From Dictyostelium discoideum (lineage: Eukaryota), in contig CM000154.2 in NCBI GenBank assembly GCA_000004695.1, positions 800,001 to 864,000 of the forward strand: 64,000 nucleotides of DNA, written 5' to 3'. Of this stretch, positions 49,261-51,020 are shown piece after piece (positions within the stretch are counted from its first letter, which is position 1; every line of letters starts with the position of its first letter). Below the pieces are notes generated by a model, which saw only the letters and a list, made by a program, of their open reading frames with translations, searched no databases and was not told the DNA's origin. The position numbers were made by a program, and so were the translations under genes.

Positions 49261-49395
49261 ACTCAGAGTCTCTCATCAGAGAGGCTGTGACCTAACAACA
49301 AAAAATTGTTTTTACACAGAATCGAACCGGCGACTTTATAAAAATTAATGTTTTTTACTCGGATGGAATCTGAGACTCATTGAGTAAAAATGGGA

Positions 49396-49424
<29 letters not shown>

Positions 49425-49430
<6 letters not shown>

Positions 49431-49830
49431 GTTAGGTATCAGGCATATGGGGTTGGATGGGTGGGTACGCGTCAAGATGTGGTGGTCTTTGGGTGAAGGT
49501 ATGTATTATAAAATTAAAAATATTGTATAAAATAAAATTATTCGGGGCTGGGGGTGGGAACTTCTTCCGGAAGAGGTTGGGGCTAAAAGATGTTTAGACA
49601 TCTCCTCCTCGGGGCGAGGGTTATACGTGAGTCCGGCTCTGCAAAGAGATCGCCCCGAGGAGGAGATGTCTAAACATCTTTTAGCCCCAACCTCTTCCGG
49701 AAGAAGTTCCCACCCCCAGCCCCGAATAATTTTATTTTATACAATATTTTTAATTTTATAATTCATACCTTCACCCAAAGACCACCACATGTTGACGCGT
49801 ACCCACCCATCCAACCCCATATGCCTGATA
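49425..49830. repeat. Large, relatively GC-rich near-perfect palindrome. The arms are about 190 bp and flank a non-palindromic centre of about 35 bp.
   Basis: The left arm (49425..49620) is the reverse complement of the right arm (49650..49830). Examples are ggtatcaggcatatggggttggatgggtgggtacgcgtcaagatgtggtggtctttgggtgaaggtatg versus cataccttcacccaaagaccaccacatgttgacgcgtacccacccatccaaccccatatgcctgatacc. The inner arms contain gatgtttagacatctcctcctcggggcga. Confidence 0.9.
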
Positions 49831-50277
49831 CCTAAAAATACTGAATTTAAAACAATTTATTATTATTCTGTTTTTGCTTAACATTATTTTATTTTTTTCT
49901 TTTTATTTATAATTATATATAATTCTTACCCTATAAAACATAAAATATTTATAATTTACCTTAAATAGTTACCACACCTAATAAAAATGATACATTAATT
50001 AATTAATTTTTTTTTTTTTTTTTTTTTTTTCACAACACATACCTTCACCTAAAGACCACCACATGTTGACGCATACCCACCCATCCAACCCCATATAATT
50101 GATACCTAAAAATACTGAATTAAAAATAATTATTATTCTGTTTTTGCTTAATATTATTTTATTTTTTTTCTTTTTATTTATAATTATATATATAATTCTT
50201 ACCCTATAAAATATAAAATATTTATAACTTGAATTAAAGTTCACAAATGGACTACCACACCTAATACAAATGATTCC

Positions 50278-50317
<40 letters not shown>

Positions 50318-50741
50318 CACATACATTCACCTAAAGACCACCACATGTTGACGCATACCCACCCATCCAACCCCATATGCTTGACACCTAAAAATACTGA
50401 ATTTAAAATAATTAATTATTCTGTTTTTGCTTAATATTATTTTTTTTTTTCTTTTTATTTATATTTATATATTATAATTCTTTCCCTATAAAACATAAAA
50501 TATTTATAACTTGAATTAAAGTTCACCAATTGACCACCACACCCAATACAAATGATTCCATTATTTTTTTTTTTTTTTGAACATACATTTATAGACCATA
50601 CTTGATACTAATTGACCCTAATACTAAATTATTTTATTATTATTTTATTTTTTCCTTTTATTTATAATCATATTCATAAAATAGTTCTTACCCTATAACA
50701 TTAAATACGTACCACACCTAACACAGAATGATACATTAATT

Positions 50742-50777
<36 letters not shown>

Positions 50778-51020
50778 TACATACATTAACCTAAAGACCA
50801 CCACATGTTGACGAATACCCACCCATCCAACCCCATATGATTGATTCCCTAAAAATACTGAATTTAAAATAATTCATTATTATTCTGTTTTTGCTTTTTA
50901 TTCATATGATAAAATATATTTAATCTACCTACACATTAAATTAAAAATACCTACCTTGAAAGACCACTCAATGTATGAAGCACACACCTAATAAATATTA
51001 GTATTATTAATTTTTTTTTT
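49770..51020. repeat. Tandem array of about 5 copies of a ~275-bp unit. Each copy starts with the palindrome-arm motif and ends in a poly-T tract. The fourth copy is degenerate.
   Basis: Copies begin near 49770, 50035, 50312, 50580 and 50775. The shared start is accttcacctaaagaccaccacatgttgacgcatacccacccatccaaccccatat and the shared body is ctgtttttgcttaatattatttt...ttcttaccctataaaa. Confidence 0.85.

Follow-up and report, generated by a model that had tools for sequence, protein, structure and literature searches.

A 404-bp near-perfect palindrome on chromosome 5 of Dictyostelium discoideum AX4, together with the tandem array into which it runs, is probably non-coding structural DNA with a two-step origin, namely a segmental duplication that copied a minisatellite out of a hypervariable interval, and then a recent inverted duplication. 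The array has a second, collinear copy on chromosome 1 with which an orphan gene was co-duplicated, is missing from the other strains and species compared, and is accompanied by no target-site duplication at either locus. The feature was studied within a 64-kb stretch of DNA (hereafter the window), whose positions are used throughout, and lies at ~0.89 Mb in a newer assembly.

The palindrome is composed of a left arm (49432-49617) and a right arm (49650-49835), each of 186 nt and given here on the + strand, which enclose an asymmetric centre of 32 nt (GGGTTATACGTGAGTCCGGCTCTGCAAAGAGA, 49618-49649) that was delimited by the inverted-repeat call and the fold. The arms are 99% complementary, with mismatches at two of 186 sites. 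The inverted repeat, originally placed at 49425-49830 with ~190-bp arms and a ~35-bp centre, is therefore real, its former limits being a few bases off. The left arm is the right arm copied in inverted sense: its reverse complement aligns with the heads of the array units, and, from the outside inward, ~72 nt of the array 'head' motif (G-rich strand) give way to an AT-rich stretch of ~40 nt, which leads into a GC-rich core. Homology between arm and array heads spans ~110 nt and is found at two loci. The GC content is 0.45 in the palindrome, 0.58 in its inner core and 0.22 in the array. Folded as RNA, the palindrome reached -365.6 kcal/mol versus -115 ± 6 for shuffles (z = -43), and the hairpin-forming complex repeat that had been proposed is genuine. 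It is the sole long inverted repeat of complex sequence within the window, the rest being AAT/TTA low complexity. An A29 homopolymer (49399-49427, + strand) adjoins the left arm via the four bases CTCG (49428-49431). The flanks of the palindrome (..CTCG / AAAAATAC..) are unrelated to each other and show no target-site duplication.

Chimeric reads can yield palindromes, and a gap of 100 N lies 4 kb from the palindrome in the AX4 assembly, as would suit an assembly artefact. However, an independent assembly of the same lineage (GCA_054883475.1), in which this gap is filled, carries the same palindrome and array with both arm mismatches included; positions 49000-51100 are identical apart from one 1-nt indel and two homopolymer-length differences, and the A29 homopolymer is 5 nt shorter there. 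Because the structure is identical in this second assembly, the probability that the palindrome is an artefact is negligible.

The right arm runs unbroken into the array, the units of which (U0 to U4, all on the + strand) are arranged head-to-tail and in register, as in a minisatellite or tandem repeat. TRF reported 2.9 copies of a 282-bp unit with 90% identity at 49764-50578. By TRF and alignment, good units are U0 (274 bp, 49764-50037), for which the outer part of the right arm serves as head, U1 (282 bp, 50038-50319) and U2 (259 bp, 50320-50578), which has a shorter T run. U3 (50579-50779), recognized by alignment, is degenerate and has lost most of its head to deletion, and U4 (50780 to ~51020), recognized by motif scan and alignment, has an intact head, a diverged body and a tail decaying to AT-rich low complexity. 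Of the five ~275-bp copies in the original prediction, the tandem array itself is real, but only three units are good (in a 274-282-bp array) and two are degenerate. The head motif GACCACCACATGTTGACGC.TACCCACCCATCCAACCCCATAT occurs five times at ≤3 mismatches (0 expected); one occurrence is in the left arm (- strand), and the remaining four are on the + strand. The units had been described as beginning with the arm motif and ending in poly-T, and both points were borne out, the heads aligning with the arm and each unit closing with a run of T residues, 15 of them in U2 and about 25-31 in each of the three remaining complete units. No variable target-site duplications were seen at the unit boundaries in the alignment. 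An array ORF of 125 aa yielded no homologue at E ≤ 10 in a protein search, the 23-nt head motif no match in a metagenome scan, and six strings of 17-18 nt from head and core no match in a full-text literature search. Contamination and horizontal transfer were also considered and rejected, plasmid and E. coli collections being without a match.

One other copy of the array was found, on chromosome 1 beside Dd5P4 and DDB_G0268468; a second genomic copy, which had been named as the key test of the original prediction, is thus present. The two arrays are collinear, unit for unit, and ~96.5% identical, with 2/72 differences between loci in the heads versus ~3.6% in the bodies, i.e., the heads are no better conserved. 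Paralogy of the right arm with chromosome 1 begins at 49700 and continues outward. The chromosome 1 copy has one truncated arm, starting 'GAAGAAGTTCCC', and is without the centre, the left arm and the palindrome; the junction between right arm and array is common to both loci. At its other end the chromosome 1 copy stops inside U3, at the site matching 50626, a truncation that falls inside a small CTTCCGGAAG palindrome. Searches with nhmmer using the arm, the units and the B-box-like island described below yielded nothing in ~280 kb of related loci, and the window holds no further copy. The second copy is unlike a product of transposition, since its units follow the same order and the flanking orphan gene went with it in the duplication. 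Dispersed copies with the same ends and target-site duplications, as expected of a mobile element, are not what the two known copies represent: their ends differ, and neither locus shows a target-site duplication. The earlier interpretation is partly supported, in that the complex repeat and its hairpin palindrome stand, but the second copy does not resemble transposition.

The orthologous chromosome 1 interval contains no array in four other genomes, two of which (D. citrinum and a D. cf. discoideum assembly) carry tRNA genes there; in D. citrinum, external B boxes are present as well, together with a TRE-like fragment of ORF2 and poly(A). Judged from the sequences compared, the interval downstream of Dd5P4 turns over fast between strains and species. 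Some genomes have tRNA genes there, one wild strain has low-complexity sequence that is read as a gene and looks PT-rich by eye, and the AX4 lineage has the array.

On chromosome 5 the whole feature lies within a lineage-specific patchwork block of 13,029 bp (43175-56203), which is absent at the orthologous site in seven other assemblies (two of D. citrinum, two further ones of D. discoideum, and one each of D. firmibasis, D. dimigraforme and D. cf. discoideum). The block has a clean junction with its surroundings (CAAAACATAT / ... / CCTAAAAAAGG), and its ends show neither a target-site duplication nor terminal inverted repeats. A Helitron-like nature of the block was rejected, as its ends are GCAT... 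and ...TGGT and lack the A|T insertion signature. For comparison, a full-length Sec16 of 1854 aa (P0117), with the Pfam domains Sec16 and TPR_Sec16, served as reference. Sec16 residues 1606-1801 are found at 43374-43968 and residues 681-1304 at 47884-48786, whereas residues 1305-1605 are missing; since the fragments are in the wrong order, the block is a patchwork. Pfam matches among the scanned block ORFs were exclusively Sec16-related, plus one below threshold, and none was transposon-related, in agreement with the original statement that no transposon ORF adjoins the feature. The block further contains a paralogue of the orphan gene DDB_G0268468 (53663-54833, - strand), which was co-duplicated with the array and is 96-99% identical to the chromosome 1 copy over aligned sites. 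Several annotated 'genes' resembling Sec16 fragments thus lie in the block beside the duplicate of the orphan gene, and the gene models there are probably pseudogenes or lineage-specific.

In the origin that we favour, the ~280-bp minisatellite would originally have resided beside DDB_G0268468 in the hypervariable interval downstream of Dd5P4 on chromosome 1. In the AX4 lineage, minisatellite and orphan gene would have been copied together into the 13-kb patchwork of fragments inserted on chromosome 5, where 186 bp next to the proximal GC-rich end of the array would have been inverted-duplicated around the 32-nt centre to give the 404-bp palindrome. The direction from chromosome 1 to chromosome 5 is the one we infer, and an origin of the inversion by fold-back or template switching appears likewise to fit. 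One arm is continuous with the parental sequence, the paralogue is without the inversion and the arms are more alike than the paralogues, as expected of an inverted duplication. The arms differ by 1% and the loci by ~3.5%, so that the inverted duplication either postdates the segmental duplication or has had its arms homogenized by conversion. The feature contains no recognizable gene, RNA family or transposon machinery and probably has no function.

Fold-back duplications with a short asymmetric spacer arise by double-strand-break repair or template switching and are known from Tetrahymena rDNA and from palindromic amplicons of yeast and tumours. The feature resembles them in its near-identical inverted arms, short unique centre, one arm continuous with parental sequence, paralogue without an inverted copy and setting within a complex patchwork rearrangement. 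It differs from them in its size of only 404 bp, in its location outside an amplified region or chromosome end, and in that no microhomology or short inverted repeat was seen at its junctions. Read by eye, the arm/centre junctions (...GGGGCGA/GGGTTAT... and ...AAAGAGA/TCGCCCC...) show no complementary end bases, nor microhomology such as would mark fold-back priming; the junction may have mutated, or end-joining may have made the join. A palindrome of this kind can extrude as a cruciform or hairpin and might be a fragile or deletion-prone site, in support of which the truncation of the chromosome 1 copy inside the small CTTCCGGAAG palindrome can be cited.

Two long, near-identical inverted arms around a tiny centre would also suit a non-autonomous DNA transposon of the foldback or thug/DDT type, bounded by long inverted terminal repeats and nearly devoid of internal sequence, that had inserted beside the array. 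Among the DNA transposons of D. discoideum, the thug, DDT and Tdd families are poorly characterized (PMC5633606); thug-S is a source of hairpin-derived miRNAs (PMC4894637). The palindrome shares with these uncharacterized elements of an AT-rich genome the inverted repeats and the hairpin potential, but its right arm is continuous with the array, and the same junction exists on chromosome 1 without the left arm. For this reason the arm is to be seen as part of the array-bearing sequence, not as a separate insertion. In addition, the flanks of the palindrome lack a target-site duplication, the ~280 kb of related loci and the window hold no other copy, and the mature miRNAs of the published D. 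discoideum table (PMC6161686, Table S1) are absent from the window. With no target-site duplication, internal ORF or intron, and with an arm lying within a larger duplicated segment, the palindrome is set apart from thug, DDT and Tdd by structure rather than by sequence comparison, and an origin as such an element is very improbable.

To the left of the A29 homopolymer lies a unique 'island' (49216-49398, - strand), which is bordered on its other side by a (TGTTAATG)x17 microsatellite (49080-49215) and has no homologue in the compared loci. It holds the B-box-like sequence GGTTCGATTC at 49319-49328 on the - strand; this ggttcgattc motif and the small inverted repeat flanking it had been noted before and are indeed present. 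The strict B-box-like 10-mer is weakly non-random (1 match versus 0.08 expected), the loose B-box motif occurs at chance frequency (7 versus 6.8 expected), and the fold of the small inverted repeat modestly beats shuffles (z = -2.3). A tRNA gene is expected to have a B box (GTTCRANNC) with an A box (TRRYNNARYNG) lying 30-60 bp upstream, and a +1 G 7 bp before the A box (PMC5391098). Upstream of the B-box motif (49319-49327), only a permissive TNNNNNANNNG match was found by eye (TACTCAATGAG, 49386-49376), for which the chance expectation is ~40% by hand calculation, and neither a stringent A box nor a +1 G. ARAGORN predicted no tRNA gene in the whole window, although the same run found tRNAs in the D. 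citrinum interval (L016) and in L018. Rfam yielded no tRNA for 48900-51300 at E ≤ 10 and no family for the whole window at the gathering threshold; at E ≤ 10 the only matches were to unrelated miRNA families of animals and plants, far below gathering scores, and reflect no more than a generic hairpin. Aligned locally with the array and with tRNA loci from D. cf. discoideum and D. citrinum, the island scored within the range of shuffles. The island is therefore not a tRNA, as had been stated for a canonical tRNA from the start, and a tRNA gene or pseudogene was rejected for want of a cloverleaf in ARAGORN and Rfam and of a stringent A box.

The island bears on the proposal that array and arm are remnants of a retroelement targeted to Pol III or tRNA genes (TRE5/TRE3-type non-LTR elements or DGLT-A-type LTRs), in which repeated non-coding modules would have accumulated beside a tRNA gene since decayed to a solo or external B box. 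Besides the GGTTCGATTC match itself, the distance to the motif would be compatible: the palindrome edge at 49432 lies 104 nt upstream of it, near a TRE5-A example at about -108 from the B box (PMC3159450), although neither a tRNA nor a stringent A box is found there. TRE5-A normally lands ~47 bp upstream of +1 (PMC5391098), and a TRE5-type insertion would be expected ~47-50 bp upstream of a tRNA gene or A/B-box locus, about 100-108 bp from the B box. This spacing and a T-rich stretch before the motif resemble the layout 'tRNA end, terminator, external B box' of the D. citrinum interval. The tRNA genes in the orthologous chromosome 1 interval of D. citrinum, with its TRE-like fragment, and of the D. 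cf. discoideum assembly also fit, and the absence of the array at both loci in all other strains examined would be consistent with mobile sequence as well. Read on the - strand, every unit finishes with A residues, 15 of them in U2 and about 25-31 in the others, and their length of 274-282 bp is close to that of the 290-bp B-module (PMC3159450).

Several observations speak against such a remnant. In TRE5-A, the element points its 5' end at the tRNA's 5' end and the poly(A) end is distal (PMC5391098), whereas the A-tails of the array face the B box, opposite to this strict orientation, and the canonical TRE5 orientation is possible for the short left arm only. TRE5-A has the architecture AB-ORF1/ORF2-BC, with A-, B- and C-modules of 200, 290 and 134 bp and the start of ORF1 in the B-module (PMC3159450), yet the ORF of the array matches no protein. 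No variable target-site duplications separate the units, which keep their register and are collinear between the loci, and neither locus has a target-site duplication; neither ARAGORN nor Rfam (E ≤ 10) reported a tRNA; loose matches to the B box are no more frequent than chance predicts, and no stringent A box exists; and nhmmer comparisons with the tRNA-adjacent transposon fragments in L016 and L018 returned nothing. The feature is like the TRE5-A (DRE) modules in being a few-hundred-bp non-coding repeat with A-rich ends, an association with Pol III B boxes and a distance to the B-box-like motif that would suit TRE5-A targeting. It is unlike them in that ORF1 and ORF2 are missing, the array is wrongly oriented, the unit size matches no module, a protein match to the ORF1 start, a tRNA gene and a target-site duplication are all absent, and flanking unique DNA was co-duplicated. 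The original idea of TRE modules thus finds orientation, unit size, ORF, tRNA and the nhmmer comparison with the D. citrinum TRE-like fragment all against it. A TRE-type element, from which the feature is set apart by published module descriptions and the D. citrinum fragment rather than by a TRE consensus, is unsupported, and the retroelement origin as a whole is unlikely. An origin of the array in a tRNA-associated, transposon-prone interval is nevertheless plausible, because of the tRNA genes in the orthologous interval and the 104-nt distance to the B-box-like motif.

The duplication history favoured here concerns the origin of the palindrome and is compatible with a further proposal that concerns its present activity, namely that inverted duplication might have made it into a young hairpin-RNA gene, either a proto-miRNA or a locus of endogenous siRNAs. 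A transcript of the palindrome, if made, would be a long perfect hairpin RNA, and the predicted fold of the 186-bp hairpin is that of a stable precursor. In dictyostelids, long hairpins almost free of mismatches have been proposed as a mark of newly evolved miRNAs (PMC11014262), and the ~110 nt shared by the arms with array heads at two loci would provide potential targets. The palindrome is nonetheless absent among published D. discoideum miRNA loci, of which those listed for chromosome 5 lie at 0.17, 0.59, 4.80 and 4.87 Mb (the ~0.89 Mb of the palindrome being taken from a different assembly than the published coordinates). None of six strings from its core occurs in the supplements of PMC11014262, and no clear promoter is directed into it. 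It is like a young hairpin miRNA in its long, almost mismatch-free hairpin, recent origin and arms homologous to other genomic sequence, and unlike one in its absence from the D. discoideum miRNA lists and in that the homologue of the arm is a non-coding repeat and no gene. Present activity as a hairpin-RNA gene is quite unlikely, and the more specific proposal of a newborn locus unique to the laboratory reference lineage, which would release a 186-bp dsRNA from the 404-bp palindrome if transcribed, is very doubtful.

The feature is best read as a recent structural variant of the reference strain that represents no new kind of genetic element. As a practical warning, the other assemblies examined lack ~13 kb that the AX4 reference carries on chromosome 5. 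The palindrome is a candidate newborn hairpin-RNA locus; if this were true, its small RNAs would correspond in sequence to the heads of the arrays on both chromosome 1 and chromosome 5, and the locus would offer a strain-polymorphic snapshot of the birth of a small-RNA gene by inverted duplication in an amoebozoan. It also lends itself to studying, in a natural setting, how stable long palindromes are when the genome is extremely AT-rich.

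The best account of the feature is that a minisatellite was copied recently, in one lineage, by segmental duplication and was capped by an inverted duplication, inside a 13-kb patchwork insertion. The observation underlying the original prediction, a near-perfect palindrome of ~400 bp, is confirmed: the arms (49432-49617 and 49650-49835) measure 186 nt each, with two mismatched positions and a 32-nt spacer, and the computed fold has -365.6 kcal/mol (vs. -115 for shuffles). From the outside inwards, each arm comprises a C/G-rich 'head' of ~72 nt, an AT-rich part of ~40 nt and a GC-rich core of ~75 nt (GC 0.58) that holds small palindromes such as CTTCCGGAAG. 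An assembly artefact is ruled out as the source of the palindrome, because the sequence over 49000-51100 recurs in another assembly of the same lineage (GCA_054883475.1, locus L001), the two differing only by one 1-nt indel and in the length of two homopolymers. No other long inverted repeat in the 64-kb window consists of complex sequence. Long AAT/TTA (poly-Asn codon) tracts at 55640-55780, 57807-57940 and 58540-58695 yield many spurious 'inverted repeats' of 110-130 nt, which are of low complexity and bear no relation to it.

The right arm passes unbroken into the tandem array (49764 to ~51020), in which copies of the head motif lie at 49779, 50053, 50335 and 50795 and a T run closes each unit. 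The predicted series of five repeated units holds for U0 (274 bp), U1 (282 bp) and U2 (259 bp), which are ~90% alike, whereas in U3 most of the head is gone and in U4 the body has diverged. To the left of the palindrome lie an A29 run and an island of 183 bp of unique sequence (49216-49398), which bears the B-box-like GGTTCGATTC on the minus strand and is bordered directly on its left by a (TGTTAATG)x17 microsatellite (49080-49215; 85% matches).

Exact protein look-ups placed the window on chromosome 5 of strain AX4 between the ornithine aminotransferase gene and DDB_G0287929. Palindrome and array are enclosed in a block of 13,029 bp (43175-56203) that is present in AX4 and GCA_054883475.1 and absent at the same site in all seven other assemblies in which the orthologous aminotransferase region was compared (D. 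citrinum (2), D. firmibasis, D. dimigraforme, D. cf. discoideum (1) and further D. discoideum (2)); in each of these, the sequence left of 43174 joins directly to that right of 56204. The junction is clean (empty site, CAAAACATATAT followed by CCTAAAAAAGG; filled site, CAAAACATAT, the 13,029 bp and CCTAAAAAAGG), with no target-site duplication or terminal inverted repeats at the block ends. Judged against full-length Sec16 (P0117, 1854 aa, Pfam Sec16 and TPR_Sec16), the block is a patchwork: residues ~1606-1801 (43374-43968) precede residues ~681-1304 (47884-48786) on the same strand, the C-terminal piece coming first, and residues 1305-1605 and most of the TPR_Sec16 domain are missing. A circular or tandem intermediate of the block would be compatible with this permuted order. 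Palindrome and array follow ~650 bp past the truncated Sec16 piece. A 100-N gap of the AX4 sequence (45392-45491), inside a repetitive histidine-/serine-rich region, is closed by 418 bp in the newer assembly (L001 13602-14019).

The original prediction had proposed a count of genomic copies, and a second one was found on chromosome 1 of the same lineage (L013/L014), where it adjoins the inositol 5-phosphatase gene Dd5P4 and DDB_G0268468. The search that led to it started from the orphan ORF at 53664-54638, whose only homologue lies there, and by this route and the fetched loci the known copies number two. At this site (L013 2631-3467) the array is accompanied by a single arm. Unit-by-unit alignment shows the arrays of the two loci to be collinear and ~96.5% identical, heads being no better conserved than bodies, and the neighbouring orphan gene is 96-99% identical between the loci over 53700-54800, so one segmental duplication took arm, array and gene together. 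Missing from the chromosome 1 copy are the centre, inner core and left arm of the palindrome as well as the counterparts of 49973-50088 and 50627-53662; the arm begins at GAAGAAGTTCCC, within the small CTTCCGGAAG palindrome, against an expanded (TAA)n run (L014 13700-13780). One T run (L014 14258-14300) is ~10 bases longer than in the chromosome 5 copy; differences between copies and between assemblies are mainly in homopolymer and microsatellite lengths.

The minisatellite with its arm and the orphan gene were duplicated as one segment; copying from chromosome 1 to chromosome 5 is the likelier direction, because chromosome 1 is the native site of the orphan gene in other strains (L015, L018) whereas on chromosome 5 the entire block was inserted. 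An inverted duplication would then have capped the array and given the palindrome. Divergence amounts to 1% of sites between the arms vs. ~3.5% between the two loci, so either the inversion is younger than the duplication or the arms were homogenised by conversion. The palindrome is unlikely to be a foldback or thug-type insertion, since its right arm is joined to the array on both chromosomes and no target-site duplication flanks it. A search of 5.8 billion proteins gave homologues of the DDB_G0268468-like orphan gene family in the D. discoideum group only; the gene is present twice in a D. cf. discoideum assembly (L018 13766-14683 and 16074-16656).

On chromosome 1, the interval from Dd5P4 to the orphan gene changes fast. 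The array is absent from it in all four other genomes fetched, and its content differs in each genome examined. In D. citrinum (L016 13614-16040) it contains three tRNA genes, for tRNA-Arg(ACG), tRNA-Lys(UUU) and tRNA-Arg(ACG) again, which have external B boxes 27-32 nt downstream; the same interval carries a poly(A)-bearing 3' fragment of a TRE-like ORF2 that has a repeated ~120-bp module at its flanks. The counterpart in a D. cf. discoideum assembly (L018 17199-18993) holds tRNA-Lys(CUU) and tRNA-Arg(ACG), and that of a wild D. discoideum strain holds low-complexity sequence, called as a 147-aa gene and PT-rich by eye. These tRNA genes lend some support to an origin of the feature in tRNA-associated, transposon-prone DNA, as do the occurrence of the strict B-box 10-mer in the window (one observed vs. 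0.08 expected) and the position of the palindrome edge 104 nt upstream of it, near the B-box distance of about -108 in one example of TRE5-A insertion (PMC3159450). Membership in the TRE elements, as had been suggested, is supported by none of the direct tests run. The loose B-box motif occurs in the window at chance frequency, no stringent A box accompanies the B-box-like motif, and no tRNA was found there. The A-tails of the array point at the B box, whereas the 5' end of TRE5-A is always directed at the tRNA (PMC5391098); the unit size agrees with none of the TRE5-A modules of 200, 290 and 134 bp (PMC3159450); the array ORF has no ORF1 match; and the array keeps its register from unit to unit, target-site duplications being absent at the unit borders. 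nhmmer detected no similarity of the feature to tRNA-adjacent transposon fragments from other Dictyostelium loci. By this search and the published descriptions of TRE5-A, the array is probably no part of that element.

Long, nearly perfect hairpins have been suggested as a sign of newborn miRNAs in dictyostelids (PMC11014262), and the palindrome locus may, judging from its sequence, have a hairpin-RNA role. No published miRNA locus coincides with it, and none of the mature miRNA sequences of PMC6161686 Table S1 occurs in the window. Most likely the feature is non-functional DNA, the chief property of which is hairpin or cruciform formation, and the gene models within the block may represent pseudogenes or genes restricted to this lineage.
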